From an uncultured bacterium (GTDB lineage: Bacteria; Hydrogenedentota; CAZGCA01; CBFDCQ01): a stretch of 64,000 nucleotides of DNA. The stretch is from the NCBI GenBank assembly GCA_965603355.1, contig CBFDCQ010000008.1, positions 5,441-69,440 of the forward strand, in the 5' to 3' direction. Numbering within the stretch: the stretch's first letter is position 1; every line of letters begins with the position of its first letter. Below the pieces are notes generated by a model. It saw nothing but the letters and a program-made list of their open reading frames with translations, searched no databases and was not told where the DNA came from. The position numbers were made by a program, and so were the translations under genes. Below are positions 5,899 to 64,000 of this stretch, in pieces.

Positions 5899-5899
5899 C
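5873..5899. repeat. right copy of the 27-bp inverted repeat (gagattcttcgctccgctcagaatgac)
   Basis: Perfect reverse complement of 5537-5563. Encodes the C-terminal residues SSLRSE of the GIY-YIG ORF. Confidence 0.9.
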
Positions 5900-8139: not shown

Positions 8140-8203
8140 GGCAGCGCACCTCTATTGAATCAGTTTCATACGGGCGAATGCAGCGGAGCCCACACCGCCC
8201 TCT

Positions 8204-9262: not shown

Positions 9263-9273
9263 GCGTGGTCCAC

Positions 9274-9702
9274 CTACTGTTCACCGACGGGCCCTCTTCT
9301 CTCGATCAACTGTACGATATGGTACCCGTACATCGTCTCGACTACGTCGCTTACGTCGCCTTCCTCCAGGAACGCCACGGCCTCGCCGTACTGCTTGTCA
9401 AAGTCGTCGGTCTCGAGAAAGCCCAGGTCGCCGCCCAGCCGGGCGGTCATAGCGTCCTCTGAGTACTGCTTGGCAAGTGCGGCGAAGTCCTCTCCCGCTA
9501 CAATGCGATCGTGAATTTCCTTTATCCTCTGGAGCGCTTGCGCAGTCTTGACCGGATCGTTGCGGTCGGTCATGATGAGGATGTGGCGCGTCCGGACCTC
9601 GGGACGCCGCTGCTGGCGGACCGCTTGCCGGTGACTCATGTAGATGGATACCGCAAAGATGAGGATTACTATTCCTGCAATTATCAGATTCCTTTTCATA
9701 AT
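9274..9702 (-). CDS. parvulin-type peptidyl-prolyl cis-trans isomerase (PpiC/SurA-like) with N-terminal membrane anchor
   Basis: FAALAKQYSED..GGDLGF..GYHIV rotamase motifs. Probable start at MKRNLIIAGIVILIF (9702) rather than the longer ORF start at 9828. Confidence 0.7.
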   Translation of the reverse strand: MMKRNLIIAGIVILIFAVSIYMSHRQAVRQQRRPEVRTRHILIMTDRNDPVKTAQALQRIKEIHDRIVAGEDFAALAKQYSEDAMTARLGGDLGFLETDDFDKQYGEAVAFLEEGDVSDVVETMYGYHIVQLIERRGPVGEQ

Positions 9703-9748
9703 CGCGTCCCGTTCCTCCTCATTAAGTGAAGTTGTCCAAGAATTCCCG

Positions 9749-15207: not shown

Positions 15208-15236
15208 TTGACAAAATTGGAGAGGCGATTTATACT
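15208..15236 (+). promoter_or_regulatory. sigma70-type promoter TTGACA-N17-TATACT upstream of the DUF1015 gene
   Basis: -35 at 15208-15213, 17-bp spacer, -10 TATACT at 15231-15236. The RBS aaaggag precedes the GTG start at 15326. Confidence 0.55.
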
Positions 15237-15325
15237 CTTTCGAAAGGGTGGGGGGAAGATCCAGTACAATATCCTATTGCGGTCGGCCGGATATAGACGA
15301 ATAATCCCGTAAAGGAGCAGGGTCT

Positions 15326-16642: not shown

Positions 16643-16697
16643 GACTTCCGGTGAACTCCGCGCCGTCACGGCGAGAAAGGTTGGTGGAACGGCTTAC

Positions 16698-24568: not shown

Positions 24569-25895
24569 CGGGCACCGCCTGTTCGCCGGTCAAGTCCGAT
24601 CTGTTATTGCTCATTGTCTCGAGGTATTCTGCCGCCGCCGCGGCCGTCTCGGTGTCCGGTCCGAGTTCTATCGTGCGCCTGAACTCTCGCTCGGCGCTGC
24701 CGAGGTCGCCCAAACGGTAGAATCTCTCACCGAGTGAGAAGTGTTCCATCTGCCATTCCTCGTACGGGATTGCGCCTTCGCCGGAACGTCTGGCGCTTTG
24801 CAGGCTCCATACCGCGCCTCCTGCGACAATGGCGACCGCTACGGCAATTACCGCTGCACGTCTGGCGCCGCGTGGCGCACGCTCGGTCGCAGACGTGGCA
24901 CGGTCTCCGGTCGACACATTTGTACCGCATTGGATGCAGACGACTTGTCCGCTCTCAAGTTCGGCGTTGCACACGCTGCACAGCTCAACGTCAAGCTGAG
25001 CCCGCCGCGCCTCAATCCGTTGGATGACCTCGGCAACGTTCAGGGGTCGCTGTTCGGGCTCCTTCTCGATCATGTCCAGAACCAGCTTGTTCAGCCACTC
25101 GGGGACGGAGCTGTTCCATTCGCGGGGCGCTTCCGGTATAGAGTACCGGTGGCTTCTCAGCACTGCCGGAGGTGAGTCACTCTTGAACGGCACTCGCCCG
25201 GTGACCATTTCATACAGGAGTATTCCGAGCGAGTAGATATCGGTGCGGTGGTCGACCTCCTTGGCGGCGGCCTGTTCGGGCGACATGTACTCCACAGTGC
25301 CGATAACTTGACGTGTGGTCGTGACACCCTTCACGTCGCTGAGCTTGGCAATGCCAAAATCCACTATTTTCGCGCGGCCGTTCTCGTCGAAGATGACGTT
25401 AGCGGGCTTTATGTCGCGGTGGATTATCCCGCCGGCGTGCGCGTGTCCCAGGGCGGAGCAGACCGATGTGGCGATTTCCAGAGCTTCCACCAAGCGGAGC
25501 GCGCCGTGCTCCTTGATCTTATCAGCGAGGCTGCCGCCGGAAAGATACTCCATCACATAGAAATGCCGACCGGTCTCCTCGCCGACTTCGAGTATTTTGA
25601 CTATGTTGGAGTGGTTCAGGTTCCTGAGCACTTCAATCTCTGTGCGAAATCGCGCGAGACGGGACGGGCTGTCACGCAGGCCGGTCGGCAAAAGCTTCAG
25701 CGCACCATGCAAACCGTCGGGATCAACTACAAGGTAGACGGTGCCGCTGGCTCCGCGACCGAGTTCGCGAACGGTTTCGTATATGCCTATCTTCACAGGG
25801 ATCAGGTCTGCCTCAGGCGTTCCAGACACGCTCACGTGCGGCCGGTTTGGCCTGCCTGCCGCCCGTTTCTGACAGCAGCGCGAGAGTTGATACAC
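24558..25895 (-). CDS. Hanks-type serine/threonine protein kinase (second copy) with zinc-ribbon, TM and TPR-like C-terminus
   Basis: GRGASGTVYLV, HRDIKPANVIF, DFGIAK, GTVEYMSPEQ. CSVCNAELESGQVVCIQCG zinc ribbon. TM segment AAVIAVAVAIVAGGAVW. Confidence 0.85.
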   Translation of the reverse strand: MYQLSRCCQKRAAGRPNRPHVSVSGTPEADLIPVKIGIYETVRELGRGASGTVYLVVDPDGLHGALKLLPTGLRDSPSRLARFRTEIEVLRNLNHSNIVKILEVGEETGRHFYVMEYLSGGSLADKIKEHGALRLVEALEIATSVCSALGHAHAGGIIHRDIKPANVIFDENGRAKIVDFGIAKLSDVKGVTTTRQVIGTVEYMSPEQAAAKEVDHRTDIYSLGILLYEMVTGRVPFKSDSPPAVLRSHRYSIPEAPREWNSSVPEWLNKLVLDMIEKEPEQRPLNVAEVIQRIEARRAQLDVELCSVCNAELESGQVVCIQCGTNVSTGDRATSATERAPRGARRAAVIAVAVAIVAGGAVWSLQSARRSGEGAIPYEEWQMEHFSLGERFYRLGDLGSAEREFRRTIELGPDTETAAAAAEYLETMSNNRSDLTGEQAVPDEQ

Positions 25896-26396
25896 CTACA
25901 GTCCAAGTTCCTCTCCAACGATTGAAGCTATGAAACGTTCAATGGATACCGGGAAGAACCGCACATCAGGCGAGTGCACAACTCCGGTCTCGATATCCTC
26001 TTTCCGCTCAAGCTCGTCAAGCACGGCATCTATGAGCTGGTCGGAGTTCATCTGCATCTCTCTCACTTTAAAATATTCCGACTCGAAGTTCACCGGCTTG
26101 CCTCCGAGCGCCAGAAAGCCGAACACGCGACCCACGAGCGCAGGTTCGATGTTCTCTTGGCCGAACAGCTCCTCGTACTTGAGCCCGTGGTAGTCCGGGT
26201 GCCAGACGAGACGCGGCGAGACGTTTATCTGTCCGCGAATCTCGAGGCTTCTATCGTGCCGTTCGCGCGATTCGCCCAGCAGAATGTACGGCAGTCGGTG
26301 ATATCCCACCACTATTCCGTGAGTAGGCTTCTTGATGACGTGCGTTTCTCGGAAAACGTGTTGCAGGTAAGCGAAATCTTCGTGATCCTCTGTCAC
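25896..26396 (-). CDS. hypothetical protein, 166 aa, in operon with the two kinases and the cyclase
   Basis: ORF directly abuts the kinase start (25895/25896). No domain recognised. Confidence 0.4.
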   Translation of the reverse strand: MTEDHEDFAYLQHVFRETHVIKKPTHGIVVGYHRLPYILLGESRERHDRSLEIRGQINVSPRLVWHPDYHGLKYEELFGQENIEPALVGRVFGFLALGGKPVNFESEYFKVREMQMNSDQLIDAVLDELERKEDIETGVVHSPDVRFFPVSIERFIASIVGEELGL

Positions 26397-26443
26397 GGTA
26401 ACGTCATCTCCTTAACAGCACGTGTCGGAATTCCATCTCGGAT

Positions 26444-28069
26444 CTACTTCACCCCGAGCACTTCGTGGACGGAGACCGGTTTTTTCTTTCCCTTAAGGAG
26501 GATCGGGCCGAGCGGCCTTCCGGAAACCTTTTCTCCGAGCTTGTGGAACGTCTCGCCGCAAGCGAGTATCTGCCCCGGTTCAGCCTTTGAACAGAGTCGC
26601 CGCGCTACGTTGACTATATCGCCGATAGCCGTAAACTCCATGCGCCTCGGCGAGCCGATATATCCGGCTATCGCAGTGCCTGTGGCGACGCCTATTCCAA
26701 CATCGAACGTGGGTCGTCCGCTCCTGCTCCATCTTTCGCGCATAGGGCACAACACGTGCTGCATCTCCAGCGCGACCTTCACTGCACGGACGGCGTGGTC
26801 GTGCGCCTGGACCGGGGCGCCGAAAACGGCCATGATCTCGTCGCCGACATACTTGTCCAGGGTCCCATCGTGCAGGAAGATTACCTCCGCCATTTCTGTG
26901 AAGTACTCATTCAACATCGAGACAACGTCGGTGGGCGACATCCTCTCAGCCAACCCGGTGAACCCGCGAATATCGCTGAACAAGGCGGCTATCTCCTGTT
27001 TTGTGCCGCCCAGTTCGATGCTTCCTTCCTTATTTATTACCTCATCCACTACACGAGGCGACAGGAACCGTTCCAGGTTGTTGCGTCGCCGCTCTTCCTC
27101 TATCATCCTTTCGGTCAACCGGACGTTCTCGATAGCTATCGCGGACTGGCTGGCGACTGCCTCGAACAGCTCGAGGTCCTCGGGAGCAAACTTGTGGTTT
27201 GGATCGCGACTGTCGACGTAGATGCTGCCGAGTATTCTGTCCTCGACTTTCAGCGGCACGCTCATTGCCGATCTGATCTGGCTCAGGATGACGCTTTGTC
27301 TCGAACTGAATCTGTCATCGTGCAGCGCATCTTCGGCGATCACGAGTTCGCCATCTATCGCGGAACGGCTTGCTATCCCCATGCTGGGCGAGCTGGTCGC
27401 CGCGTCCCTACCCATCTTGCGCGCGACCTCGGTGCTCAAGCTGCCGTCATCTTCGTTGACAAGGACTATGAACCCGCGGTCCGCGCCGGTCACCTTGATG
27501 GCGCTGTCGAGAATTGCCTCGAGCCGTTTCTTGAGATCAAGTTCGGAAACCGCGAGGCGTGACGCTTCGTACAGGGCCTCAAGACGACGGTACGCTTTGC
27601 CGATCGCCATGATGTTGGTCGGGTCCGCGAGCTCCTCGATAGAGCTGTCCTGGACGTCCGGTCTTCTCACCATCATGGTCAGTCGCTCGCCGACGGAACT
27701 CATCTGCTGCTTTATGCGGGCGACGTCTGCCGAAGCGTTCGCAGCGGTCGTAGCGGTGCCTGCAGCTTGTTGCCAAGGCCCGTCTACGAGGGTGAACACC
27801 AGGTCATAGTGACCTATGGTGATTTTGTCGCCTTCGGCCAACTCCTTTCTCTCGACAGGTTTCCCGTTGACCAGCGTACCGTTAGTGCTGCCCAGATCTA
27901 TCAGCACGTGCTTGCGGTTTTCGAGCCGCAACTCAGCATGCTTCGTCGAGACAAATTCATCGCTCAGCACCAGCCCGCTGTCCTCTGCGCGACCTATAGT
28001 GAGAACAGTTTGCCGGAGAGCCACGCGACGACGTTTCCGGTTGCGGTAGGATACAAGCAATTGTGCCAT
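26444..28069 (-). CDS. FHA domain - GAF domain - class III adenylate/guanylate cyclase
   Basis: FHA: TIGRAEDSGLVLSDEFVSTKHAEL..LGSTNGTLVNG. GAF in the middle. Cyclase: FSDIRGFTGLAERM..LNEYFTEM..GTLDKYVGDEIMAVFGAP..RVGIGVATG. Confidence 0.8.
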   Translation of the reverse strand: MAQLLVSYRNRKRRRVALRQTVLTIGRAEDSGLVLSDEFVSTKHAELRLENRKHVLIDLGSTNGTLVNGKPVERKELAEGDKITIGHYDLVFTLVDGPWQQAAGTATTAANASADVARIKQQMSSVGERLTMMVRRPDVQDSSIEELADPTNIMAIGKAYRRLEALYEASRLAVSELDLKKRLEAILDSAIKVTGADRGFIVLVNEDDGSLSTEVARKMGRDAATSSPSMGIASRSAIDGELVIAEDALHDDRFSSRQSVILSQIRSAMSVPLKVEDRILGSIYVDSRDPNHKFAPEDLELFEAVASQSAIAIENVRLTERMIEEERRRNNLERFLSPRVVDEVINKEGSIELGGTKQEIAALFSDIRGFTGLAERMSPTDVVSMLNEYFTEMAEVIFLHDGTLDKYVGDEIMAVFGAPVQAHDHAVRAVKVALEMQHVLCPMRERWSRSGRPTFDVGIGVATGTAIAGYIGSPRRMEFTAIGDIVNVARRLCSKAEPGQILACGETFHKLGEKVSGRPLGPILLKGKKKPVSVHEVLGVK

Positions 28070-33523: not shown

Positions 33524-35950
33524 GTGCGAAGGCGAATAGAGAAGGTGGCGGTTCTGGGATCTGGTGTCAGGGGCAGCGGTCTGTCTGCTTACGTTGCCGG
33601 TATAGGGCTGCCCTGCTATCTCCTTGACCTGGTTCCGGAAGAACTCGCGGACGAGGAGACGGCAAAAGGATTGACGCTTGACGATCCCGCCGTGAGGAAT
33701 AGGTTGGGAAACCTGGGTGTGCAGCACGCGCTGAAAGCAGATCCTCCAGCCTTTTTCGATGTCGGCGATCCGGCGCTGATCCGTGTGGGCAACTTTGAGG
33801 ACAACATGGACTGGCTCGGCGAGGCGGACTGGATAGTCGAGGCGGTCGCCGAAAACCTCGATGTCAAGAAGCGACTTCTCAAGAACGTCGAGAAGTTCCG
33901 CAGCGAGGGTTCCATAGTCAGTTCCGCGACTTCCGCACTTCCAATAAGCGAGATGGGTAAAGGGTTGTCGAAGGAGATGCGGCAACACTTTCTCGGCACA
34001 CATTTCCTCAATCCCGTCCGGTACGTGAGATTGATTGAGATCGTGCCGGGACCGGACACGGATTCAGAGGTGCTGGAGTTCATGGCACACTTTGCCGAGA
34101 GAGTGCTCGGGAAAAGGGTGGCTATCGCCAAAGATGTGCCGTATTTCATTGCAGACCGTCTTGGCACGTTCGGTATCATGGCGGCCATGAAGGCGACGAA
34201 GAAGATGGGGCACAGGATCGAGGAGGTGGACAGGATATTGGGTCTCGCCACGGGCAGGGCGGCAAGCGGGGTGTTCGCGCGCGCGGATACCATGGGCGTG
34301 GACGCTCTCATGAACGTCGCGCAAGACCTGCACAAGAGGTTGCCGAACGATCCCGATCGTGATGTGTTCCGACCACCGCAGTTCCTCAGGAAGATGGTCG
34401 GGAAGAACGCGCTCGGGGACAAGGCGGCACGGCGGTTCTACAAGCGCGCGGAGTTTGGCGGCGCGCAGATGGTCCTTGCTCTAGATCTGGACAAGATGGA
34501 GTACCGGGAGCGGGAAGCGGTTGAAATAGATTCACTGGATAAAGTAGGGCGCATTGATGATCCCGGCGAGAGGGTGAAGGCGCTGGTGTATGCGGAGGAT
34601 CGTGGCGGAAAGTCCGCGTGGCGCGCGATGTGTGACATGCTGCTTTACGCTGTGGAGCATGTGCCTGAAATTGCCGGCGAGATTGTCGACGTTGACAACG
34701 CGGTGAGGTGGGGACTCGACTGGGCGATCGGTCCGTTTGAGGCGTGGGACGCCATCGGCGTCAGGGAATCCGTCTCTCGCATGGAACAAGAGGGAAGAAA
34801 GATACCGGAGAAGGTGCGCAGGGTCCTCGGCGAAGGTGAAGGCTCCTTCTACGTCTCCGAGGAGGGCGGTACGAAGTACTTCGATTTTGCCACGGGCAAG
34901 TACGAGCCGCTTGCGGCCAATCCGAACGTTACCGTCCTGGACGGCAGTAAGGTGGTCAAGTCGAACAGGGGAGCCGGCCTGCTTGACATCGGCGACGGTG
35001 TCGCGTGCCTTGAGTTTCGCACTGCAGGCGGCGTGATTGACGCTGATATCGTGCAGATGCTGTTCGACAGCATCGAGGAGGTCAACCGGAACTTCGTCGG
35101 TCTTGTCATCGGGAACAGCGGGACGAACTTTTCCGCCGGGGCTGACCTGCGTCCGCTGTTGACTCAGATCAGGGCGAAGAACTGGGATGGCGTCGAGAGG
35201 ATGTCCCGCCGTTTGCAGGAGGCGTGCACGTTGCTCAGGTGCTCCGGCAGGCCGGTTGTTGCGGCACCGTTTGGAATGACGGTGGGAGCCGGTGCGGAAA
35301 TCGCGATGGCCGCGGACAGGATTTGCGGGCACACCGAACTCTACATCGGGTTGGCGGATGTCGCTGTCGGGCTCATACCGGGGGGCGGCGGCACGAAGGA
35401 ATTGCTGCTGCGCTGCACTGAGAATGTGCCACCCGATCCTGACACGGATCTGTTGCCGTATGTGCGTCATACGTTTGAGCTTATAACCACCGGGAGAGTC
35501 TCGACCAGCGGGAAGGAAGCGCGCAGGATAGGTTTTCTCCGCCGAGCGGACCGGATCATCGCGAACAGGGATTACTTGATCAACGATGCGAAACGCGCTG
35601 TGTTGACCATGGCTCAGGACGGTTATGTCCGACGGCAGCCCCGTAGGGATATACGCATCGTCGGCGAACGCGGATATGCGACTCTGAAGTCGAGCTTGCT
35701 GGAGATGAAGTGGGGGCACCGTATCAGCGAGCATGACGCGGTAATCGCTGACAAGCTGGCTTACGTTCTCTGCGGCGGCACGTTGCCGGACAGGATGCTC
35801 GTTGACGAACAGTACCTGCTTGATCTCGAGCGCGAAGCGTTCGTGAGTCTTTGCGGGTGCGAGAAAACGCAGGAGAGAATGGAACGTATGCTCAAGTCGG
35901 GCGGACCTTTGCCGAACCGCGGCCGGATCGCTCACCACTTGAGCGTTTGA
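33524..35950 (+). CDS. fadN: bifunctional 3-hydroxyacyl-CoA dehydrogenase / enoyl-CoA hydratase, FadN-type order (dehydrogenase N-terminal, crotonase C-terminal)
   Basis: N-terminal NAD-binding VAVLGSGVRGSGL and 3HCDH domains. C-terminal crotonase fold (..VIGNSGTNFSAGADL..). 808 aa, arranged like Bacillus FadN. Confidence 0.8.
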   Translation: MRRRIEKVAVLGSGVRGSGLSAYVAGIGLPCYLLDLVPEELADEETAKGLTLDDPAVRNRLGNLGVQHALKADPPAFFDVGDPALIRVGNFEDNMDWLGEADWIVEAVAENLDVKKRLLKNVEKFRSEGSIVSSATSALPISEMGKGLSKEMRQHFLGTHFLNPVRYVRLIEIVPGPDTDSEVLEFMAHFAERVLGKRVAIAKDVPYFIADRLGTFGIMAAMKATKKMGHRIEEVDRILGLATGRAASGVFARADTMGVDALMNVAQDLHKRLPNDPDRDVFRPPQFLRKMVGKNALGDKAARRFYKRAEFGGAQMVLALDLDKMEYREREAVEIDSLDKVGRIDDPGERVKALVYAEDRGGKSAWRAMCDMLLYAVEHVPEIAGEIVDVDNAVRWGLDWAIGPFEAWDAIGVRESVSRMEQEGRKIPEKVRRVLGEGEGSFYVSEEGGTKYFDFATGKYEPLAANPNVTVLDGSKVVKSNRGAGLLDIGDGVACLEFRTAGGVIDADIVQMLFDSIEEVNRNFVGLVIGNSGTNFSAGADLRPLLTQIRAKNWDGVERMSRRLQEACTLLRCSGRPVVAAPFGMTVGAGAEIAMAADRICGHTELYIGLADVAVGLIPGGGGTKELLLRCTENVPPDPDTDLLPYVRHTFELITTGRVSTSGKEARRIGFLRRADRIIANRDYLINDAKRAVLTMAQDGYVRRQPRRDIRIVGERGYATLKSSLLEMKWGHRISEHDAVIADKLAYVLCGGTLPDRMLVDEQYLLDLEREAFVSLCGCEKTQERMERMLKSGGPLPNRGRIAHHLSV

Positions 35951-35974
35951 TTCTGAAAGGACAGGGATCGCGAG

Positions 35975-37159
35975 ATGAGAGAGGCGGTCATAGTGGCTGC
36001 GGCGAGAACACCGGTCGGACGTGCCAAGACGGGCAGCCTGCGCGATACGAGACCGGAAGATCTGCTCGCGACGGTTATCGCGGAGGTGTGCAATAGGACG
36101 CCGGATCTCAACAAGAAGGATGTTGATGACGTCGTGATCGGCTGTGCCGGCCCGGCCGGCGAGCACGGAGTGAATATGGCCAGGGTGACCGCGCTGCATG
36201 CCGGCATGCCGGACACCGTGCCGGGACACACGGTCAGCAGAGCCTGTTCTTCCGGCCTGCAGGCGATAGCTATCGGCGCTCAGTCCGTCATGTGCGGGTT
36301 TGCCGATGTGGTGATAGCCGGCGGGGTGGGGAGTATGAGCTGTATGCGGATCGGCGGCTCCAATCCGAGCGCGCACGCGGGTATTCTGGAGCAACGTCCT
36401 GAAGTATACACATCGATGGGAATAGCTGCCGAGAACGTCGCGGCGCGGTTCAACGTGGACCGGCGGGATATGGACGGGTTTGCGGTGGGCAGTCACCGGA
36501 AGGCCCTCGAGGCGATCGATGAGGGTAGGTTCAGGGACGAGATCGTTCCGGTGAAGGCCAGGGTTTACCCGCTCGACCCGACAGATCGGTCCGGTCCGGA
36601 GGAGATCCTGTTCGATACGGACGAATGTCCGGGAGCGAGCCTCGAGGAGCTTGCCGCGTTGGAGCCTGCGTTCGACCCGAGCGGTTCGGTGACGGCGAGG
36701 AATTCCTCGGCTCCGGGCGATGGTGCAGCGGCGGTAGTGCTCGCTTCGCGCGAGAGCGCGCAGAGGCTGGACATCAAACCTATGGCGACGTTCAGATGTT
36801 ACGCGGCCGCGGGTGTGCCGCCGGAGGTTACGGGAACCGGTCCGACCGTTGCCGTGCCGAAGTTGACCAGGGTATCGGGTATGGATCTTGAGGATTTCGG
36901 GTTGGTCGAGCTGGACGAGGCGTCCGCCTGTCAGGCTGTACACTGCATCAGACAGCTCGGTTTGAACGAGGAGATGGTAAACGTCAACGGCGGCGCCATC
37001 GCGCTGGGTCGCCCGCTGGGCAGCACCGGCGCAATGCTCGCGGTCACGATCCTGCACGAGATGGCGCGTAGGAAAGTGCGCTACGGTCTGGTTACCATGT
37101 CGGCGGAAGGCGGTATGGGCCTCGCGGCTGCGTTCGAACTCGAGGATCACGAGGGTTAA
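35975..37159 (+). CDS. fadA: acetyl-CoA C-acyltransferase (thiolase)
   Basis: REAVIVAAARTPVGR; active-site Cys region VSRACSSGLQAI; C-terminal NVNGGAIALGRPLGSTG. Confidence 0.85.
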   Translation: MREAVIVAAARTPVGRAKTGSLRDTRPEDLLATVIAEVCNRTPDLNKKDVDDVVIGCAGPAGEHGVNMARVTALHAGMPDTVPGHTVSRACSSGLQAIAIGAQSVMCGFADVVIAGGVGSMSCMRIGGSNPSAHAGILEQRPEVYTSMGIAAENVAARFNVDRRDMDGFAVGSHRKALEAIDEGRFRDEIVPVKARVYPLDPTDRSGPEEILFDTDECPGASLEELAALEPAFDPSGSVTARNSSAPGDGAAAVVLASRESAQRLDIKPMATFRCYAAAGVPPEVTGTGPTVAVPKLTRVSGMDLEDFGLVELDEASACQAVHCIRQLGLNEEMVNVNGGAIALGRPLGSTGAMLAVTILHEMARRKVRYGLVTMSAEGGMGLAAAFELEDHEG

Positions 37160-37234
37160 CGCGCCGACGGCGCACCTTCGGGCCGCCACGGCGAGCCTTC
37201 GACGAGACGCGCGCGCTACCTGAGTGAGACGTGG

Positions 37235-37609
37235 ATGTTGCAGCTGAGCAGAATCCAAAGAAATCACCTGCTGAAATGGTTGGTTATCATTCTGATTGTG
37301 GAAGTGTTTCTCTTTTTCTTCCCATTCCTAGCTTGGAAGGCGTTCCTGGCTCTTGGCATAGCTTTCTGGGTCGGTTTCTTGTTGCGAGTCTTGGGCGTGT
37401 ATCCCGGGAAATACGAGCCGCTGACACTTGATCTGCTTTCGGGCGCGTTAGCTCTTATCTGCGGAGTCGGGTGCTTTGTTGCAGGGAAGACCGACGGTAT
37501 CGTACGCCTTTTCATATTGCTGGCACCCCCCTTTGCATTAGTTCCTCATTTTGTATATATTATCTGTAAGTTGGGGCGTGCCGCCGAAGAATCAGCACGT
37601 AATCAGTAA
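37235..37609 (+). CDS. small membrane protein (3-4 TM), hypothetical, inside the fad operon
   Basis: Hydrophobic 124-aa ORF between fadA and fadD. Confidence 0.4.
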   Translation: MLQLSRIQRNHLLKWLVIILIVEVFLFFFPFLAWKAFLALGIAFWVGFLLRVLGVYPGKYEPLTLDLLSGALALICGVGCFVAGKTDGIVRLFILLAPPFALVPHFVYIICKLGRAAEESARNQ

Positions 37610-45816: not shown

Positions 45817-47460
45817 ATGAGAACCATGTTTAGACGAGCGATTACATGTTGCCTGGCGGTGTTGACGCTACTTAGCCTGGTCGGGTGCAGCACGGTGTAT
45901 ATGAAAGCGACACCGTTCTATACCGGCGAGTACGAGAAGACCGACGGGCCGGCCGAGAAGAGGGTAAACCTCTGGCCGCTGGCGTACTACCGGAAACCGG
46001 CGCTGTCCTTGCTGTGGCCGCTTGGGGAGGTCACGGACGACCATGTCGCCGCACGTCCACTCGTTGCGGTCTACAAGCTCGACAAGGAAGAGCGCCAGTG
46101 GCGTATTCTGTGGCCCTTGGCTCAGTTTGACTTCGAGACGGACAGCCATCATATCTTGCCGGTTTTTTGGGGCGAGGACTACTTCTTCATACCCCCGTTG
46201 GTTTTGTGGTCCGATGAGTACAAGGCGGTGTTCCCGTTGTGGCTGCATTCCAAGGATTCGGGTGGCCACGATACTTGGGCGCTATGGCCGTTCTTCCGAC
46301 TCGAACGGGAGGAGGACGAGCGGGGCTTCCACGTCTGGCCGCTGGTTGGCTCTTACGAGCAAGAGGATAGCAGCTATACCTTCGCGATGTGGCCGCTGTG
46401 CCAGCGATGGCGTGACGGCGACGACTCTCTTCTGCTGACACCGCTGTGGTCCAGCAGAACCGAAGGCGATTCGCGGTGGAACTGCTTGTTCCCGCTCTAT
46501 TACACCAGCACCAATCCGTCAAAGGACGAGGAGCGACTGATAACTCCGGTCATTGGCCGCGCACGTTCGGGCGACAAAACGCGGTGGATCCTTGTTCCGG
46601 CCGCTTCGTCCGTGTCATGGGGTGAGGATGAGAAGGATATTTGGGCGCTGGCACCTCTGGCACATTTCCGGTGGGGCGGCGACGACGTTCAGAGCCATGT
46701 CGCGCCGCTATATCTGTATGACCGAGACGAGAACCTGTTCGTCTCGCCCGTGTTCTCAAGGAGAAAGGGCGATGACGATGGCTTCGTCAATGTGCTCACG
46801 CTTCTTGGCCAATACACGTATCACAGCGATGGACAGAAGACGTTGAGGTTGCTTCCGCCACTGACGGCAGTCTCGCGGGGCGGGAAGTACAGGCGTCCGG
46901 GCGCATGGTTGTTCTCCTACTTCGCACCGGAAGCACGTGCTGAGCAAGAGAAGCCGTACTACCTCTGGATTGCGCCATCGATTTACTGGGAGCGGGATTT
47001 CGGCGAGAGGGAGTGGTCGGAGGATCCAGATGGTGCGGGATGGACGGGCGAGTGGCATCGGAAAGGACTCTTCCCCCTCTGGCACTACCAGAGCCACGAG
47101 GATCCTGAGAGGGAGCGCCGTTATCGCGACTTTTCGCTGCTGGGCTTCTTGTACGATTATCGTCTCCGTCAGGGCCGGCCCGCAAGAGATGATTCCGAGA
47201 TAACCGAGGACTACGTGCGGAGGCGTATTCTCTGGCGATTGGCTCATTATGAGCGCATTGACGGAGATAAGACGCTTGATATCTTTCCTGCCATAACCTG
47301 GGACAGCAAGGCGGACGGTTATAGACAGTTCTCGTTCTTGTGGCGGCTGTTCCGAGTTGAACGCACTGAAGATGGCGGGCAGAATCTGGACTTCCTATTC
47401 GTCCCGCTGATGCGCAAGAGCGGCACGTCCGAAGGCGGAACCGGCCAGGGAGAGCTTTGA
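45817..47460 (+). CDS. lipoprotein built from about 25 short (about 17 aa) Trp/Pro/Leu-rich repeats; family not recognised
   Basis: Lipobox LSLVGC|S. Recurrent units such as LWPLAYYRKP, LWPLGEVTDD, LWPLAQFDFETD, VFWGEDYFF, FPLWLHSKDSG, LWPFFRLERE, VWPLVGSYEQ, MWPLCQRWRDG, TPLWSSRTEGD, FPLYYTSTNP, APLAHFRWGGDD, APLYLYDRDEN, FPLWHYQSHED. 547 aa. Confidence 0.6.
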   Translation: MRTMFRRAITCCLAVLTLLSLVGCSTVYMKATPFYTGEYEKTDGPAEKRVNLWPLAYYRKPALSLLWPLGEVTDDHVAARPLVAVYKLDKEERQWRILWPLAQFDFETDSHHILPVFWGEDYFFIPPLVLWSDEYKAVFPLWLHSKDSGGHDTWALWPFFRLEREEDERGFHVWPLVGSYEQEDSSYTFAMWPLCQRWRDGDDSLLLTPLWSSRTEGDSRWNCLFPLYYTSTNPSKDEERLITPVIGRARSGDKTRWILVPAASSVSWGEDEKDIWALAPLAHFRWGGDDVQSHVAPLYLYDRDENLFVSPVFSRRKGDDDGFVNVLTLLGQYTYHSDGQKTLRLLPPLTAVSRGGKYRRPGAWLFSYFAPEARAEQEKPYYLWIAPSIYWERDFGEREWSEDPDGAGWTGEWHRKGLFPLWHYQSHEDPERERRYRDFSLLGFLYDYRLRQGRPARDDSEITEDYVRRRILWRLAHYERIDGDKTLDIFPAITWDSKADGYRQFSFLWRLFRVERTEDGGQNLDFLFVPLMRKSGTSEGGTGQGEL

Positions 47461-50451: not shown

Positions 50452-52221
50452 CTACTTTCTTGTCACTGTGATAGTGACATCTTTGCCAGGCTCGATCGTC
50501 TGCAGTTGCATTGTAGCCACGGACTCGGCTCGGTTCAAGAAATAGGTTGCACCGCTGACATCGATCTCGTAATCCTCGAAACCGGGATACAGTTTCAACG
50601 TAAGATGTGTGATTCCGTCCGGAGCGCTGATCGTCCATCCGAAACCGGATTCCGATCTCGTGAACCTGCCTACCCGGGCAGCTTTCCTCTCAATCCACCA
50701 CTTGGCCAACTTCGCGCCCGTGTCGTTGAACACCCATTTGCCGTCAAATCGTTTCAGGACGTCGCGGTAAGCCCCCAGACGGTCAACGCATCCGTCAGCG
50801 TCGCGCACATAAGTGCGCCAAAGCAAACTGAACAGGGCGTGCCGGCGGGATGTCTTTCTAACAATATTGGCTATGCGTGCGAGCGCGACTCGTACGTCGG
50901 GATCTTCTTCGAACAGCTTCTCGTCGGCGACGACGGCCGGGAGCTGCAGCGCCGATGAGGCTCGCCGCTCGCTGCGAATGTACGGGAAGTGAGGAAACGC
51001 CAGGCCTGCCCGGTAACCTACGTTATTAAGTCCGCCCGTGCTGCCGTATGCGAACGCGGCTTGCTCGTGTGAAAGATGGCTTCCGGGGATGTATGGGCCG
51101 ACGGTGCGCTGATGCAACCCGCTGACCTCGCTTTGAAGCGTTTCCTCGAGCAGCTCTTTTTCAGACCGCACCTTCGCACAGGTGAGCGATGCCTCTTCAC
51201 TGGCGCTCAACCCGATCTCGAACCCGCTGCGTCTGAGCTCTCCCAACGCGGCGGACATGCTCTCGTTGCTCACGCCGCGCAGGTCTGAGCCCGCGCCGCC
51301 GGTCGCGGGGAAATAGAACGAGGACGAGAAGCTGTGGTCGGTCTCCAGCCGCATGAGTTCCGAGAAGCCACGGAGCGGTTCTTTACGCATTTTGTTGAAA
51401 CGCAATGCACTTGATATATGCGCGAGCGCCTTTCCCGGTCTCAGCCGCAACATCTCCATTGCGGCGCCGGCAACCTCTTCGCGGAACGATCGTCGCGGGA
51501 CGAACTCAACGTCGTGCGAGAGGAATAGTGCCGACTCGTTGGACCGTGGCCAGTACCATTTTTGCAGCAACGCGGTCTTGCGTTCTCGAGCCACAATGAT
51601 CAGCAGATTCAGCACGATTTCCATGTAGTTGTTCACTATCGGTTCGTCCAGGACGTCCGCGCGACGCAGCGGGCGACCGTTGGCAGGCCGGTCTTCTCCC
51701 GCGTCATAGGTTTCTACGCGTCGTTCCGCCTCGCCGGACAGCAGGTAGAAAGCCGAGGCGACCAGGTCGAACAGGATATCAATCCGAAAGGTTTGCGGGT
51801 GGAACGATACGAGCGGTTTCTCGTCGGATGCGTCGATAACCAGTGCGCGGCCATCCGGCCGGGGTGAGACGCATCCGGCAACCAGGATCGGTCCTGTGGG
51901 CATGCCTCGAACGCCGGAGACGTTGGCGGGGCTGATGTGCGAGTCTGCGCCGGACCAGACCGTACCGTAATCCTCGCATTGCACTCTCACCAGGAAACCG
52001 TCACCGCGCCGGCGGGGATCGTCATTGCGCCCGTAGTAGAAGACGACGTCGCACGCCGGGCGCTCGATCCTGCGTGACGGTGTGTCGGCGGGATAAATCG
52101 TGTACGATACGCCAAGGGTGTCGAGGAGAGTATTGAACACGTATTCGGCCTCGCGGTCGAATTGAGGCGAACAATCCAGAACGACTCCTATTTCCATCGG
52201 CACCACTCCCGGTGTTGGCAT
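50452..52221 (-). CDS. hypothetical protein, 589 aa, co-transcribed with the GT2-TPR gene (possible polysaccharide-modification role)
   Basis: Long ORF whose stop lies 10 bp before the GT2 start. No confident domain assignment from sequence inspection. Confidence 0.5.
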   Translation of the reverse strand: MPTPGVVPMEIGVVLDCSPQFDREAEYVFNTLLDTLGVSYTIYPADTPSRRIERPACDVVFYYGRNDDPRRRGDGFLVRVQCEDYGTVWSGADSHISPANVSGVRGMPTGPILVAGCVSPRPDGRALVIDASDEKPLVSFHPQTFRIDILFDLVASAFYLLSGEAERRVETYDAGEDRPANGRPLRRADVLDEPIVNNYMEIVLNLLIIVARERKTALLQKWYWPRSNESALFLSHDVEFVPRRSFREEVAGAAMEMLRLRPGKALAHISSALRFNKMRKEPLRGFSELMRLETDHSFSSSFYFPATGGAGSDLRGVSNESMSAALGELRRSGFEIGLSASEEASLTCAKVRSEKELLEETLQSEVSGLHQRTVGPYIPGSHLSHEQAAFAYGSTGGLNNVGYRAGLAFPHFPYIRSERRASSALQLPAVVADEKLFEEDPDVRVALARIANIVRKTSRRHALFSLLWRTYVRDADGCVDRLGAYRDVLKRFDGKWVFNDTGAKLAKWWIERKAARVGRFTRSESGFGWTISAPDGITHLTLKLYPGFEDYEIDVSGATYFLNRAESVATMQLQTIEPGKDVTITVTRK

Positions 52222-57556: not shown

Positions 57557-57616
57557 TTGACATGAGACGCGAATCAGGACTATAATGGCCGGATGGCCCG
57601 CGTCACGTAGGCGGGC
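57557..57616 (+). promoter_or_regulatory. near-consensus sigma70 promoter TTGACA-N18-TATAAT followed by the palindrome gcccgc-gtcacgtag-gcgggc, upstream of uvrA
   Basis: -35 at 57557-57562, -10 TATAAT at 57581-57586. The inverted repeat at 57596-57616 lies just downstream of the -10, so it is a candidate operator. Confidence 0.5.
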
Positions 57617-57736: not shown

Positions 57737-60565
57737 GTGTGCACGGAAACCAAGGAATCACTCCGGAGCGGTGACTCAGCCAGGAATATCTGCCTGGCAG
57801 GGGTGCGCGTACACAACCTGAAGAACCTCGATGTTGAGATACCGCGCAACCGTCTTGTAGCCGTTACCGGGGTGAGCGGTGCGGGCAAATCGAGCCTCGT
57901 GATTGACACAATCTGCGCGGAGGGTCAACGTCGCTACCTTGAATCGCTCGATCCGTATTCGAGACAGTTCGTCGGCAGGATGAGCAGTCCGGACGTGGAC
58001 TTCGCCGTAGGAATCCCACCGACGATTAGTCCCAAAAAGGTTGCGCTTTCGCACAAATGGCGCTCAACCGTGGGGACTGCCACGGAGATCTACAACTACT
58101 TGCGTCTACTTTTCGCCAAAATCGGCGTAGTGCATTGTTACCGGTGCGGGCGCGAGATGGAGAGCACGAGTGCCGAGCAGGTAGCCGACGAGCTTGAAAA
58201 GGCACACGGCGGTGACCTGGTTTTCATAACATTCGGGGTGAACGGGTCGCCATCGGGCAAGCTGATGGAGCGGCTGGTGCGCGACGGGTATACGCGCGCG
58301 ATTGTGGGGGACTCGGTTCAGCAGATAGACGAGCTTCGCGGCCGGAGGAACAAGAAGCGCGCCGAGGTACACGTGGTCGTTGACCGCGTCACTCCGGGTC
58401 GGTGCGGGCGAAGACGCCTTGTTGACTCGCTCGAGACTGCCTACCGTGAGGGCTCGGGCGAGTTGAGGGTACATGTTGCGGAAGCTGACGTGCTGCGCTA
58501 CAGCGCGCGTCCCGACTGTCCTTACTGCGGGACAGAACCTGTCAGTCTGAGCCCGGCTCTTTTCTCGTTCAACAGCGCGGCGGGGACATGTGCTCAGTGC
58601 CGCGGCTCCGGAATGGTGGCGGAGGTGGACCTGCAGGCGGTCATCCCGGATGAGGCCAGAAGTATCGAGGATGGAGCTATTGCACCGTGGAGGCATCAGC
58701 AGCATCGTTGGCCATTGAACGAGCTGAGGATCATAGCGCACAAGTACGGCCTGTCTCTGCGCGTCCCCTTTGAACAACTCAGCCGTAAGAACAGAAGACT
58801 TGTGCTTGAGGGTGAGACGTACTTCCCCGGCGTCTACAGATTCTTCGAGATGCTTGAACAGAAGAGGCACAAGCCGGGTGTGGCGGAGTACCTGGACGTG
58901 TATCGTAAGAGCGTTGAGTGTCCGGAGTGCGCGGGAAACAGGCTGAACCCGCAGGCGGCCAGCGTGCACGTTAACGGATTCAACATTGCAGAGCTCTGCA
59001 ATTCACCCTTGTCCGGTTTGAAGAAACGTCTGGCGGGACTCAGGTTGGACGGTTGGCAGAGAAAGGTAGCTGGTGGGTCAATTGAGCAGATCGTGAGGCG
59101 CGTTGATTGTCTCACAAAAATGGGGCTCGGCTACCTGACGTTGGACAGGAACTTCGCGAGTCTTTCCGAAGGAGAGGTTCGACGGGTGAATCTCGCGGGT
59201 TTCCTTTCAGCTGACCTCAGCGGCAGCCTGTATGCGCTGGACGAACCGACGGTAGGTCTTCATCCGTGTGACCGCGAGCGTTTGTTCGAGGCGCTCGAGG
59301 CGCTCAAAGAGCGCGGTAACACGGTTATCGTCATAGAGCATGACAGGCATATCCTCGAAAGGGCAGACCAGGTCCTCGAGCTGGGACCCGGAGCTGGACG
59401 AGCCGGCGGGGAGATTGTGTTTCAGGGAACCTACGATCGGATCCTCTCCTGCGGTAAGTCCCTTACAGGAAGATACTTATCAGGGCACTCGACGGCGCTA
59501 ACTCATGAAAGACGCGTAGCTAGCGGGCATCTGAAGGTCATCGGGGCGCACAAGCACAATCTTCGTGATATCAATCTGAAAATCCCCCTGGGAGTGTTGG
59601 TGTGTATCACGGGCGTGTCAGGTTCCGGTAAGAGCGTGTTGTTGCGGGACGTGATCTATGCCGCTCTTGCGGGTGAGAATGACGCGTTGCCTCGGGGGGG
59701 TAACGGGTATGTCGCGCTGGAGGGAGCCGAGCAAATAGAACGAGCAATGTTCGCGGACCACAGTTCCATAGGCCGCTCACCGAGATCGGTACCGCTGTCT
59801 TACATTGGAGTCTACGCTAAAGTACGCGCGCTTTTCGCCGGTGTTCGCGTGGCGCGGGTTAAGGGTTACCGGAGCAACCGTTTTTCTTTCAATGCGAAGG
59901 GAGGGCGTTGTTCCGGTTGTAAAGGTCTGGGCTACATCGAAGTGGCGATGAACCTGGTGCCTAACGTCCGTGCGAAGTGTTCTGCGTGTGAGGGCAAGAG
60001 GTTCAAGGACGAGATACTGCAGGTGCGCTTCCGGGGCAAGAACATTGCCGACGTGTTGGATATGACTGCGGAGGAGGCGGTGACGTTTTTTTGCGATTCG
60101 CCCGATATAGAGAGCGGACTCAGGGCGCTTGACGAGGTCGGTCTGGGATACTTGCAGCTCGGTCAGCCGCTGGCGAGCCTTTCGCGTGGCGAGGCTCAGC
60201 GGCTCAAACTGGCCTCTTCCATCTTACGAGGCGCTGGAGGCGATGCTCTGTTCTTGTTCGACGAACCCACGGCGGGGCTCCACTTTGAGGATGTGAGGAA
60301 GCTGACCGAGTGTTTCGATACGCTTCTGGAGAAGGGCAACTCAGTTATCGTAGCAGAACACAACATGGAACTGGTCAGGCAGGCCGATTACGTAGTGGAT
60401 CTGGGTCCGGGAGCCGGTCTGAGGGGCGGTAGAGTTGTTGCAAGAGGAACGCCGCAGCATGTTGCTCGATGCAAGTCCTCGAAAACGGGGAAGGCTCTCG
60501 AGGAGTACATAAGGTGTGCGGGACAACCAGCAGGTGGGGAGGTACGCGCTCTCGCAGGAGCGTGA
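57737..60565 (+). CDS. uvrA: excinuclease ABC subunit A (UvrA family; exact N-terminal start uncertain)
   Basis: [48 protein letters not shown] matches the UvrA N-terminus. Zinc modules (CxxC pairs). Second ABC module with [15 protein letters not shown] and DEPT motifs. Confidence 0.8.
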
Positions 60566-60570
60566 ACGCT

Positions 60571-63183
60571 ATGGGCACCGCGATTAAGAAAAACGAACAC
60601 GCCGGGGACCAAAGCTCTCGGGACCCGAATGTCGGCACGTCATCGGCATCATCTCTCATAAGCGACACCGCCCGCGAGACTATTCGGGCGGAAATCGACA
60701 CTGTGGGTGGAAACGAGGTCTTCTTCATAGGCAGAACCGACGAGCGCGGCCTTGTGACCGATATTGCGGTGCACGCCAGGGGCAATGATGAGGCGGTGTC
60801 GGCTTTTATCGGCTCAGCGTCGGCGGGCGACGTGGTGATCCATAACCATCCATCCGGTCCACTCACTCCGTCCGACGCGGACATTGGTTTCTCGAGCACA
60901 TTCGGCGACATGAGCGTTGGCTCGTACATCGTGGACAATATGGTACGAAAGGTGTACGTGGTCGTGCCGGTTTTTGAGAGGATCGAAACGAAGAAGATTG
61001 CCCCCGAACAGGCAACCGCGATTGTGAGACCCGGTGGGGCGATCGAGAGGGATTTGGCGTCATACGAGTTCAGGAGTCAGCAGGTTGAAATGATGGAGGA
61101 GGTCATAGGAGCGTTTGACGAGGACAGGATAGCCCTTATCGAGGCCGCAACAGGTACGGGTAAGACGGTCGCCTACCTGATTCCCGCCATATTGTGGGCG
61201 ACAGCCAACGGCGAACGGGTAGTCGTATCGACGAACACGATCAATCTTCAGGAGCAGCTCATACACAAAGACATACCGATGCTGAGACGCGCCCTCGGAA
61301 TCGGATTTGAGGCGATCCTGATGAAAGGAAGAGGCAACTACGTCTGCTTGAGAAAACTTGAGAAGGTGGCCTCGGACATCGAGCTTTTTTCCACGAGCGA
61401 CGACAGGAAGATGCTCGCGGATATCATAGCGTGGGCGCGAAAATCCAGGGACGGAGACAGGTCACAGCTCAGTTTCGTGCCGCCTGAGCATCTGTGGGAG
61501 AAGGTCTGTTCTGAAGCCGATTTTTGTTTGCGGGCGAAATGCTCTCACTTCAAGGACTGTTTTGTCAATCGTGCTCGTCGAGAGGCATCGCAATCGGACA
61601 TCATTGTAGCGAACCACCATCTTCTGTTCGCGGATATCTCGTTGAGGAGACAGACGGGCAGCTACTCTGATCTCGCGGTACTTCCGTCGTACCGGAGGCT
61701 CGTGATTGACGAGGCTCACAACGTCGAGAACGTGGCGACGTCGTACCTCGGCGAGCGGATCACGCGGGCCGGTCTCGCCAGGATAATAGGGAGGCTGCAT
61801 CGTTACGAGCGGGTGAAACGCTCTGCGGTTGAGAAGGGTATTGTTCCTTTCCTGCGCGCTAAGATCGGGCGCGCGCGCGGCGCCTTCACGGACAAGCAAG
61901 GCGAGAGACTGCTCTCTGTGATTGACGGTACGATAGTACCGTTGCTGGAAGGGCTGTTGCAGCTTGTTGATGTTGCGTTTGAAGCTGTTTTTGAATTTGT
62001 TCAAGGGTTTTCGCAGGAGACCGGCCTGGAGAAGAAGCTGAGAATCACCGATGAGGTGCGCACGGGCGACGGGATGCGCAACGTTTACTCGGAACGCGTG
62101 GAACCTCTCGTTGCGGAGCTCACGGCGGCGGCGGGAAAGCTTGGTGCTGCAGCGGTCGCGCTGTCCAAAGCCAAGAGCAAGGACGAGAAGGCTGATTTCA
62201 CGCTGGACCAGGCGGAGCTGAACGCATACGCGATTAAGTTCAGGACGATAGCGGCTTTCATCGCGCAGATATTCAATGAAACCGGTCATGAGGACACGAT
62301 TCAGTGGATTGAGACGAAAGATGCGGGAAGGCGCGTGGTCAGAGTCTGTTCGGCGCCGCTCGACGTATCGTCGGCGCTGGTGGAGACGGTATATCCGAAC
62401 ATCAGGACCATCGTGATGACCTCAGCCACTCTGTCCGTGGGGGGCAGGCTTGATTTCCTGAAGCGCCGGCTCGGACTCGACTGCGTGGAGCAGGGTCGGG
62501 TAAGCGAGCGAATCCTGCCGTCTCCCTTTGACTTTGACAAACAGGCGGTGATAGGTGTCCCGCTGGATATTGCGGACCCGTCGTCGCCACAGTATATCGA
62601 TCAGGCTGCGGAGATGATCATGGAATGCCTGCGAATCACTCGCGGCAAGGCGTTTGTGCTATTCACCTCGTTCGGCGCACTGAACTACGTTGCCAAGAAG
62701 CTCCGCGAGCCCTTGAAGGAGGAGGGAATAACATCGCTGAGACAGGGTATGGCTCCGCGACACAAGCTGCTCGAGATGTTCAAGAAAGATGTGCACTCCG
62801 TATTGTTCGCGACAGACAGTTTCTGGGAAGGTGTTGACGTCGCCGGTGAAGCGCTCGAGTGCGTGATTTTGGCGAAACTCCCTTTCCGGGTGCCGACGGA
62901 ACCCGTTCTCGAGGCGCGCGCTGAGAAGATCGAGAAAGACGGCGGCAACTCGTTTGTGGAGTACACGGTGCCGCAGGCTGTGATAAGATTCCGGCAGGGA
63001 TTTGGCAGACTGATCCGCAGGCGGAGCGATCGCGGCGCTATAATCATACTTGATAACAGGGTACTGACCCGCTCTTACGGAAGTGTCTTTCTGCGGTCGC
63101 TTCCAGACGCGCGGCTGATGTGCACAAAACGGGAGGAAGTGCTCGCGGCCGTTCGCGAGTTCTTTGAGGGCAACCTTCGCTGA
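60571..63183 (+). CDS. fusion protein: N-terminal RadC-like JAB/MPN domain plus DinG/Rad3-family ATP-dependent helicase
   Basis: JAMM/RadC motif [21 protein letters not shown] with upstream Glu. Helicase Walker [12 protein letters not shown] box [11 protein letters not shown]-terminal helicase_C_2 (..[12 protein letters not shown]..). ATG 5 bp after the uvrA stop, with an AGGAG RBS. Confidence 0.75.
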
Positions 63184-63330
63184 ATGGGCGGGTGATTTGC
63201 CGCGGTTGTATGTGGACGGGTCACATGATAGAATTGTCAGGTGTGGTGCGGCAGGCAACTAGAGGCCAGGCTGAGCCATGTCAGCTCGTCTCTGGATGCA
63301 GCCAGGACGGGGCTAACGGGGAAGATCCAG

Positions 63331-63864
63331 ATGGTGCCTGTAGATCAGGACGATAAACCAGGTAAAAATGAAGGCGCCGGTGAGGAAGCGGCCGCGACCA
63401 TCAAGCTATCGTCGATTCTTGAAGAGGGGTTGATCCTGTGCGGGATGAGAGCCCGGGGCAAGCGCGAGGCGGTCGAGGAGCTGGCCTCATTCGTCGCGCA
63501 GAAAAGGCCCGGGGTGAGCAAAGACGCGATAGCGGAGTCAGTGCTTGCCCGTGAGCGTGTGTGCACTACGGCAATAGGCAGAAGGTCCGCGTTCCCGCAC
63601 GGCGAGGTGGCTGGTCTCGGGAAGATGATTGTCGCCGTTGGGTTGTCCGAGGCGGGCGTGGATTTTGATGCTATTGACGATTTGCCGGTTAACTTCATCG
63701 TGCTCATCGTGACATCGGAGACGGCAGCCGGTGAATACCTGGGAACGCTTGCGGCGTTTGCTTCGCTGAGTCGCGACCTGGATAAGATGGCGGTCCTGCT
63801 GCGTGCAACCTCGCCCGTCGACGTTCTGAGAACTATCGAGGGCTTCGATATAGAAATAGTGTAG
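63331..63864 (+). CDS. PTS EIIA type-2 domain protein (PtsN / nitrogen-regulatory IIA-like)
   Basis: ERERVCTTAIGRRSAFPHG matches the PTS-EIIA-2 phosphorylation-site region (RE...STG.G.G.A.PH). Start placed at MVPVDQ; the longer ORF begins at 63241. Confidence 0.6.
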   Translation: MVPVDQDDKPGKNEGAGEEAAATIKLSSILEEGLILCGMRARGKREAVEELASFVAQKRPGVSKDAIAESVLARERVCTTAIGRRSAFPHGEVAGLGKMIVAVGLSEAGVDFDAIDDLPVNFIVLIVTSETAAGEYLGTLAAFASLSRDLDKMAVLLRATSPVDVLRTIEGFDIEIV

Positions 63865-63899: not shown

Positions 63900-63929
63900 T
63901 TGACAAATCCGCGTCCGTTCGGATAGACT
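63900..63929 (+). promoter_or_regulatory. possible promoter for the tRNA gene: -35 TTGACA (63900-63905) with a weak -10
   Basis: The extended -35 context cTTGACAAATCC is almost identical to that upstream of the gntR operon (12049-12060). Confidence 0.3.
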
Positions 63930-63963
63930 CCAATCAAAGAAAATTGTGCCGGAACCGAAGGGT

Positions 63964-64000
63964 GGGGACGTAGCTCAGTTAGGGAGAGCGCTTGTCTGGC
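63964..64000 (+). tRNA. 5' portion of a tRNA gene (truncated by the window end); anticodon read as GGC, so probably tRNA-Ala
   Basis: ggggacg acceptor arm, TA, D-stem gctc/gagc with D-loop agttaggga, anticodon stem cttgt, U33, then GGC at positions 34-36. G3 is consistent with Ala identity. Confidence 0.6.

Follow-up and report, generated by a model that had tools for sequence, protein, structure and literature searches.

We analysed a window of 64,000 nucleotides from an uncultured bacterium of the Hydrogenedentota (contig CBFDCQ010000008.1), in which a gene at 60571-63183 encodes a RadC-type JAB domain joined to a DinG-family helicase. The product is likely to belong, as an ordinary chromosomal member, to the published RadC-like DinG subgroup, and is encoded as the second gene after a canonical uvrA. 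This confidence covers identity, family membership and operon arrangement, while we are far less sure of the enzymatic mechanism. Fusions of RadC-JAB domains to DinG/Rad3 helicases were reported from several phyla, with a proposed nuclease role, by Iyer, Zhang, Rogozin and Aravind (2011 NAR, PMC3239186). The subgroup was named "RadC-like DinG", and one member modelled, in a later review (Cheng 2025 CSBJ, PMC11981726). Hence, the initial annotation, which had been made from the sequence alone and had taken the architecture to be undescribed, was wrong on this point. The features by which the 2025 review recognizes the subgroup were all found here, namely a JAB domain preceding the helicase, the E, HxH and D residues, the motor with Arch and CCCC motif, and full-length homology.

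The apparently unreported element is a modest detail, the clade-specific operon with uvrA. Published accounts mention no uvrA linkage, and the term 'uvrA' occurs 0 times in the 2025 review. The subgroup is widespread, and RadC-type JAB domains have been enigmatic in their function since the 2008 paper cited in Cheng 2025, 'RadC, a misleading name?'. Retention of the fusion beside a canonical uvrA in one lineage provides one contextual clue linking the family to damage excision. The weight of this clue is modest, because it comes from one uncultured clade only and may reflect neutral synteny.

Domain architecture and conservation of the fusion

The N-terminal region carries the RadC/JAMM signature with an upstream glutamate, as initially annotated. 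Residues 91-104 match the JAMM pattern HxH-x7-S-xx-D, E49 lies upstream, and the Pfam RadC model (PF04002) is matched just above its gathering score (22.7 against 22.1 bits). The remainder is a complete DinG-family helicase. Walker A (ATGTGKT, residues ~192-199) and the DEAH box (380-383) are present, a helical Arch insertion occupies residues ~400-570, and Helicase_C_2 (683-846; 162 bits) is followed by a C-terminal helix (854-866); the Pfam models DEAD, ResIII and DEAD_2 also match. Four cysteines are spaced C-x59-C-x4-C-x5-C, which fits the CCCC iron-sulphur (Fe-S) motif described for DinG-like proteins (Cheng 2025, PMC11981726), and Fe-S binding is predicted. As judged from sequence, an intact JAB hydrolase domain is joined to an intact Fe-S motor of the DinG/YoaA type, at the position held by the exonuclease in ExoDinG.

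Among NCBIfam models the best match was YoaA (NF053712), with 592.2 bits under an equivalog cutoff of 680; the E. coli-type DinG model reached 409 bits. PRK08074 scored 517 bits (cutoff 789), with the alignment running from query residue 157 at model position 248, past the exonuclease domain. TIGR01407 likewise aligned from model position 240 (383 bits against a cutoff of 548). Full-length RadC models scored far below their cutoffs (TIGR00608, 17.6 bits against 133.85; PRK00024, 23.5 bits against 180), and the RadC match is restricted to the motif segment, model positions 43-88 of 121. A full-length AlphaFold2 (AF2) model had a mean local confidence (pLDDT) of 85.8 and a pTM of 0.80, and the predicted structure shows a DinG/XPD fold. 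In the PDB it was closest to the DinG structures of E. coli (6fwr, E=5.6e-39) and S. aureus (9ii8/8zef), and DdmD was found among the remote structural matches. By sequence, S. aureus DinG was the top PDB match, the helicase aligning to 8zef residue 249 from query residue 157. Domain search and structure prediction, which the initial annotation had suggested as a check, upheld the JAB/RadC-like assignment of the N-terminus.

Residues 1-21 form a Lys/Ser/Thr-rich extension with a pLDDT of ~30. It is present in sequences of at least 51% identity, and most remoter family members lack it. An alternative start at the in-frame ATG 60469 would give a 904-aa protein and overlap uvrA by 97 nt. This start was rejected because the closest homologues have a length of 870 aa and cover the query completely (100%), and because the genes called on other contigs likewise begin at the 870-aa start.

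Conservation was assessed in an alignment of 31 full-length homologues (45-92% identity) and in 37 JAB-bearing fusion loci (designated by L numbers) from species-representative genomes. A scan of genome contigs with the single protein as query matched nothing, whereas the 31-homologue alignment as query did; a scan of metagenome contigs contributed three further loci only. E49, H91, H93, S101 and D104 of the putative hydrolase site were unchanged in all 31 homologues, as were C259, C319, C324, C330, the Walker A residues G195 and K198, and D380-E381 of the DEAH box. The JAMM motif was intact at 36 of the 37 species-level loci; for one of these, L002, E49 falls outside a truncated match. The sole degenerate site belongs to Cetobacterium (Fusobacteria; L024:3787-6195), which has F-N-H and T...E in place of S...D, in agreement with the earlier remark that some fusobacterial RadC-JAB versions lack zinc ligands (Iyer et al. 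2011, PMC3239186). This invariance points to strong purifying selection on the JAB hydrolase site. The fusion itself is genuine: a frameshifted two-gene origin was rejected, since 35 of 37 loci carry a single open reading frame (ORF) of 801-1055 aa and the other two one contiguous tblastn match.

Searching with the full-length sequence gave thousands of DinG-like proteins. The best 120 listed matches showed 80-100% query coverage (nearly all at least 95%) and 45-92% identity, and came from Acidobacteriota, Hydrogenedentota, KSB1, Calditrichota, Abyssubacteria, an actinobacterial metagenome-assembled genome (MAG) and metagenomes. Proteins of the same architecture from many phyla are 45-51% identical across 95-98% of the length, and partial proteins with the same N-terminal domain were seen in Geobacteraceae, Desulfuromonadales and Nitrospirota. 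Species-representative genomes with the fusion include Terriglobia, Thermodesulfobacteriota/Geobacter relatives, Sumerlaeota, Treponema, Brachyspira, Fusobacteria, Halanaerobium and many Gemmatimonadota. When the N-terminal domain alone was used in phmmer, 548 clusters (50% identity) were matched at E<=0.001 and 385 at E<=1e-10, among 1.84 billion representatives. The best 150 listed matches all lay at or near a protein N-terminus, and many of the proteins were ~800-920 aa long; the shorter ones are probably metagenomic fragments. Because only 548 clusters were found, with the best 150 N-terminal and of lengths fitting whole or truncated fusions, the domain is a JAB subfamily distinct from canonical RadC.

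Features of the fusion gene and its surroundings, in window positions
Feature	Position	Strand	Basis or remark
RadC-like DinG, 870 aa, JAB/MPN+ plus DinG/YoaA-type Fe-S helicase	60571..63183	+	sequence, domain searches, model
JAB/MPN+ (RadC-like) domain	60637..60966	+	residues ~23-132
JAMM metal-site motif, H91-N-H93-PSGPLTP-S101-DA-D104	60841..60882	+	residues 91-104
E49, candidate general base of the JAMM site	60715-60717	+	
Linker between JAB domain and helicase core			residues ~133-156
Superfamily 2 (SF2) DinG/XPD-type helicase core	61039..63168	+	residues ~157-866
Predicted Fe-S domain, cysteines C259, C319, C324, C330	61345..61560	+	invariant alignment columns
N-terminal extension, residues 1-21	60571-60633	+	predicted disordered
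uvrA, canonical class I excinuclease ABC subunit A, 942 aa	57737..60565	+	TIGR00630 and Pfam
uvrA/dinG junction: AGGAG 60556-60560, TGA 60563-60565, 5-nt ACGCT, ATG 60571-60573	60556..60573	+	
Sigma-70-type promoter-like TTGACA-N18-TATAAT, 12/12 matches, upstream of uvrA	57557..57586	+	function inferred
PTS EIIA-2 (PtsN-like) gene	63241..63864	+	Pfam PTS_EIIA_2, 70.8 bits; gene callers differ on start

The probable uvrA operon and its chromosomal setting

The product of the upstream gene reached 948.8 bits against TIGR00630, the class I equivalog (cutoff 729.8). It carries UvrA_inter (PF17760, UvrB-binding; 46.7 bits), UvrA_DNA-bind (PF17755; 52.4 bits) and two ABC modules. As this UvrA is canonical class I, nothing points away from canonical nucleotide excision repair (NER), and the initial hint in that direction is unsupported. 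No second uvrA or dinG was found within the window.

The helicase start codon does lie 5 bp past the uvrA stop codon with a good ribosome-binding site, as annotated initially. The AGGAG, a Shine-Dalgarno-like sequence inside the uvrA 3' end, is located 10 nt upstream of the ATG, and the RadC-like dinG gene is probably translationally coupled to uvrA. Upstream of uvrA, an identical perfect TTGACA-N18-TATAAT occurs at the related loci L081, L082, L088 and L090. The site is kept in every clade member with upstream sequence, though the neighbouring intergenic DNA has diverged, and it likely drives the gene pair. No convincing promoter or terminator was found between the two genes. SOS control was also considered, since a LexA-box-like CTGT-N8-ACAT overlaps the -35 element in the window; this was dropped because L081 has not conserved the box and the other relatives have nothing comparable at that position.

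Same-strand uvrA was found directly upstream in all six lineages of at least 71% helicase identity (100, 92, 77, 73, 72 and 71%). The junction takes three forms, a 5-nt gap (window and L081), a 4-nt ATGA overlap (L082, L088 and L090) and a 1-nt TGATG overlap (L089). The gene beyond uvrA varies by lineage and encodes a penicillin amidase, an FtsY-like protein or PilZNR. With the junction tight in three variants over six lineages, the co-expression with uvrA that had been implied earlier is plausible. From these comparisons the linkage is real, probably represents an operon with coupled translation, and is confined to one uncultured clade.

Two further observations concern uvrA. UvrA is usually well conserved. 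Within the clade (L081-L098) it was the helicase that was more conserved (71-92%, compared with 63-83% for UvrA), which was unexpected. In L003, a deltaproteobacterial MAG, a 1876-aa ORF at 1261-6891 (-) consists of two UvrA-like halves (tblastn, 620 and 397 bits). It lies ~0.8-1.1 kb upstream of a RadC-like DinG gene at 8001-10547 (+), on the opposite strand, and this is the only one of the 37 distant fusion loci examined with a uvrA-like neighbour.

The gene downstream of the helicase encodes an EIIA protein and is found in the same place in L081, L082-84 (after an inserted pgi), L088, L089 and L090; it is probably outside the repair function. Other genes in the window encode HflX, homoserine dehydrogenase, an aminotransferase, MtnA, a XerC/D-type recombinase, glycoside hydrolases, Ser/Thr kinases, FloA/NfeD, Dtd and penicillin amidase. 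The setting is that of ordinary chromosome rather than of a defence island, and no cas genes were seen among the window genes scanned against Pfam.

Several other features were noted in the surroundings. A Halanaerobium MAG has, directly upstream of its fusion gene, a gene of AP_endonuc_2, the Pfam family that includes endonuclease IV (L026:7162-7998), and a member of this family lies two to three genes downstream in four clade loci (L082:9135-10130, L088:9434-10429, L089:4478-5473 and L090:6545-7540). The fold is a xylose-isomerase-like TIM barrel; an Nfo-type repair enzyme and a sugar isomerase are both possible. At 23258-28069 (-) two tandem Ser/Thr kinase genes adjoin a gene for an FHA-GAF-adenylate/guanylate cyclase, possibly a signalling cassette. 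ORFs of 479-911 aa at 34535-37267 (-), 45817-47457 (+) and 50455-52221 (-) gave no Pfam match at E<=1e-5, nor did those at 13447-15078 (+) and 15233-16669 (-). The window end (~63960-64000, +) holds the apparent 5' half of a tRNA gene (GGGGACGTAGCTCAGTTAGGGAGAGCGCTTGTCTGGC), preceded by a promoter-like TTGACA-N18-TAGACT at 63900-63929; ARAGORN reported no tRNA at the window end, presumably because the gene is cut by the window edge. In L091, L092 and L093, which carry an identical helicase, a 432-aa TIR_2 plus DUF533 protein is encoded at 7389-8613 (+), ~1.1 kb past the EIIA gene, a position just beyond the end of the window.

Possible roles of the JAB domain

We postulate that the JAB domain would serve as the processing module of the enzyme, since it occupies the place of the DnaQ-type 3'-5' exonuclease of Firmicute DinG. 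Characterised DinG/XPD enzymes move 5'-3' on single-stranded DNA. The RadC-like DinG helicase would accordingly be expected to load onto single-stranded DNA where damage or stalling has occurred and to translocate 5'-to-3', which would bring the JAB active site to whatever obstructs the motor. Together, uvrA and RadC-like dinG form a two-gene unit in this lineage, probably expressed from the consensus sigma-70 promoter and with the second gene probably translationally coupled to the first.

As for the bond that is cleaved, we favour, with somewhat less than even confidence, a peptide bond of some protein that has become trapped on DNA or crosslinked to it. The fold and the full JAMM site argue for this, and to our knowledge every characterised JAB enzyme is an (iso)peptidase and no JAB nuclease is known. 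Cleavage of a phosphodiester bond, which the nuclease proposal of 2011 implies and its displacement argument favours, seems doubtful, and that the domain acts on some other substrate or performs no catalysis is doubtful to the same degree. In E. coli, NER copes only with crosslinked proteins of under ~12-14 kDa, and a protease step ahead of it has been proposed to be required for larger ones (PMC6945406). This size limit and the protease step would make sense of the uvrA operon. In its most specific form, the proposal would make the JAB domain a translocation-coupled, DNA-dependent metalloprotease that trims a crosslinked or jammed protein to a peptide adduct, the remnant being excised by UvrABC, the sensor of which would in this clade be translated together with the helicase; this complete scheme we regard as quite improbable. 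If it were true, the enzyme would represent a single-chain bacterial counterpart of the eukaryotic SPRTN-plus-FANCJ route and the enigmatic RadC-type JAB domain would gain a function. The literature searched yielded nothing on RadC biochemistry or on a link of RadC to crosslink repair.

Other explanations bear on the same data. The JAB domain could be a nuclease that replaced the DnaQ-type exonuclease by non-homologous displacement, resulting in a helicase-nuclease that degrades the unwound strand (Iyer/Aravind 2011). The argument is published (PMC3239186), the catalytic residues are conserved, the domain holds the same N-terminal position as the ExoDinG exonuclease, and the helicase cores are closely related, as seen in the PRK08074 alignment and in the S. 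aureus DinG sequence match; we nevertheless consider a nuclease rather unlikely, as the substrate argument above favours a peptide bond. XPD is known to verify damage in archaea and eukaryotes. UvrA and RadC-like DinG might constitute an alternative excision or verification machine in which the helicase replaces UvrB in verification and the JAB domain does the processing. Here a helicase of XPD/DinG fold is indeed co-encoded with the damage sensor UvrA, the coupling looks stoichiometric, and there is a C-terminal helix of the kind that binds HolC in YoaA (Cheng 2025). This UvrA, however, keeps its UvrB-interaction domain and scores as a canonical equivalog, and the linkage is seen in one clade only, so that such a machine is very unlikely. 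Least probable is an anti-foreign-DNA helicase akin to CasDinG or other defence-associated DinG-like proteins, a role raised in the initial annotation. PADLOC returned typeIV_DinG matches of up to 433 bits on the helicase core, and DdmD is among the distant structural matches. The PADLOC hits are generic DinG-model matches, the only ones in the window, and reflect helicase-core similarity: with the Csf4/CasDinG model TIGR03117, which has a cutoff of 400, the protein reaches only 115 bits. Housekeeping genes make up the neighbourhood, with no cas or other defence genes nearby, synteny in relatives is stable, and the family is spread over many phyla in stable chromosomal contexts. The Fe-S cysteines are kept here, whereas CasDinG lost Fe-S binding (Cheng 2025, PMC11981726). 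Given the chromosomal context and the generic matches, the defence-island reading was rejected.

The adjacency to uvrA could also be neutral, lineage-specific synteny of two housekeeping genes and carry no information on function, which we hold possible, if on the doubtful side. The pair has been held over six lineages, down to 71% identity for the helicase and 63% for UvrA, while the upstream flank changed. The junction was remodelled in three ways, in each within +5 to -4 nt, and DNA is the substrate of the products of both genes. A number of points, on the other hand, weigh against the favoured reading. Conservation of the linkage in related genomes, a check suggested in the initial annotation, held for the six lineages and failed beyond them: the nearest outgroup, a relative of 51% identity, has a gene for a B12-binding domain upstream in place of uvrA, and a same-strand uvrA neighbour was found in none of 37 more distant fusion loci. 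At those loci the fusion is equally tight to purA or to genes for FAA hydrolase, ThrE, a RelA/SpoT-TPR protein or a chromate transporter. None of the neighbours recurs throughout the family, the shared-neighbour clusters being lineage-specific (mostly Gemmatimonadota) and not repair-related. Since the linkage is absent outside the clade and other loci lie beside unrelated genes, it may be neutral. The polarity of the helicase and the binding of Fe-S and of zinc are moreover assumed from relatives, and the Pfam RadC match taken alone is marginal. According to Cheng 2025 (PMC11981726), RadC-like DinG is without any biochemical or genetic study. E. coli radC mutants are, as the same review cites Attaiech et al. 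2008, not damage-sensitive, and the 'RadC' label alone is therefore no sign of repair.

Comparison with known systems

The protein shares with other RadC-like DinG members the N-terminal RadC-like JAB domain with E, HxH and D, the YoaA-like core of MD1, Fe-S, Arch and MD2 domains, the CCCC motif and the C-terminal helix. The clade studied differs in adding the tight uvrA-helicase operon and, in sequences of at least 51% identity, the disordered N-terminal extension of ~21 residues. With the JAMM/MPN+ metallohydrolases it has in common a zinc-type E...HxH-x7-S-xx-D site on a JAB fold, and it may share their zinc-dependent (iso)peptidase activity. Canonical RadC/YicR (PF04002, TIGR00608, 2qlc) has the same JAB fold and HNHPSG...PS..D motif. 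Its N-terminal HhH-type region is, however, missing from RadC-like DinG, and only the motif region aligns.

ExoDinG (PRK08074, TIGR01407, S. aureus 8zef/9ii8) has a close helicase core and likewise bears an accessory catalytic domain at the N-terminus, in the same position. There the accessory domain is a DnaQ-like exonuclease of RNase-H fold, whereas here it is of the JAB/MPN+ type and the protein scores below the family cutoffs. YoaA, the HolC-associated DinG paralogue of E. coli, has the same Fe-S helicase organisation and C-terminal helix and gives the best NCBIfam model. It differs in having no JAB domain, and RadC-like DinG stays under the YoaA equivalog cutoff. According to Cheng 2025 (PMC11981726), HolC does not occur in those organisms that have RadC-like DinG. 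CasDinG/Csf4 is set apart by the low model score and by the lack of cas genes among the window genes scanned.

A functional analogy, finally, can be drawn with eukaryotic DNA-protein crosslink repair, in which the FANCJ helicase acts with the SPRTN/Wss1 protease. In both cases a protease-type metallohydrolase would be paired with a 5'-3' helicase of the XPD/DinG family, with a possible hand-over to excision repair. The zincin-like SprT domain is not homologous to JAB, and in RadC-like DinG both activities are predicted to reside in one polypeptide.

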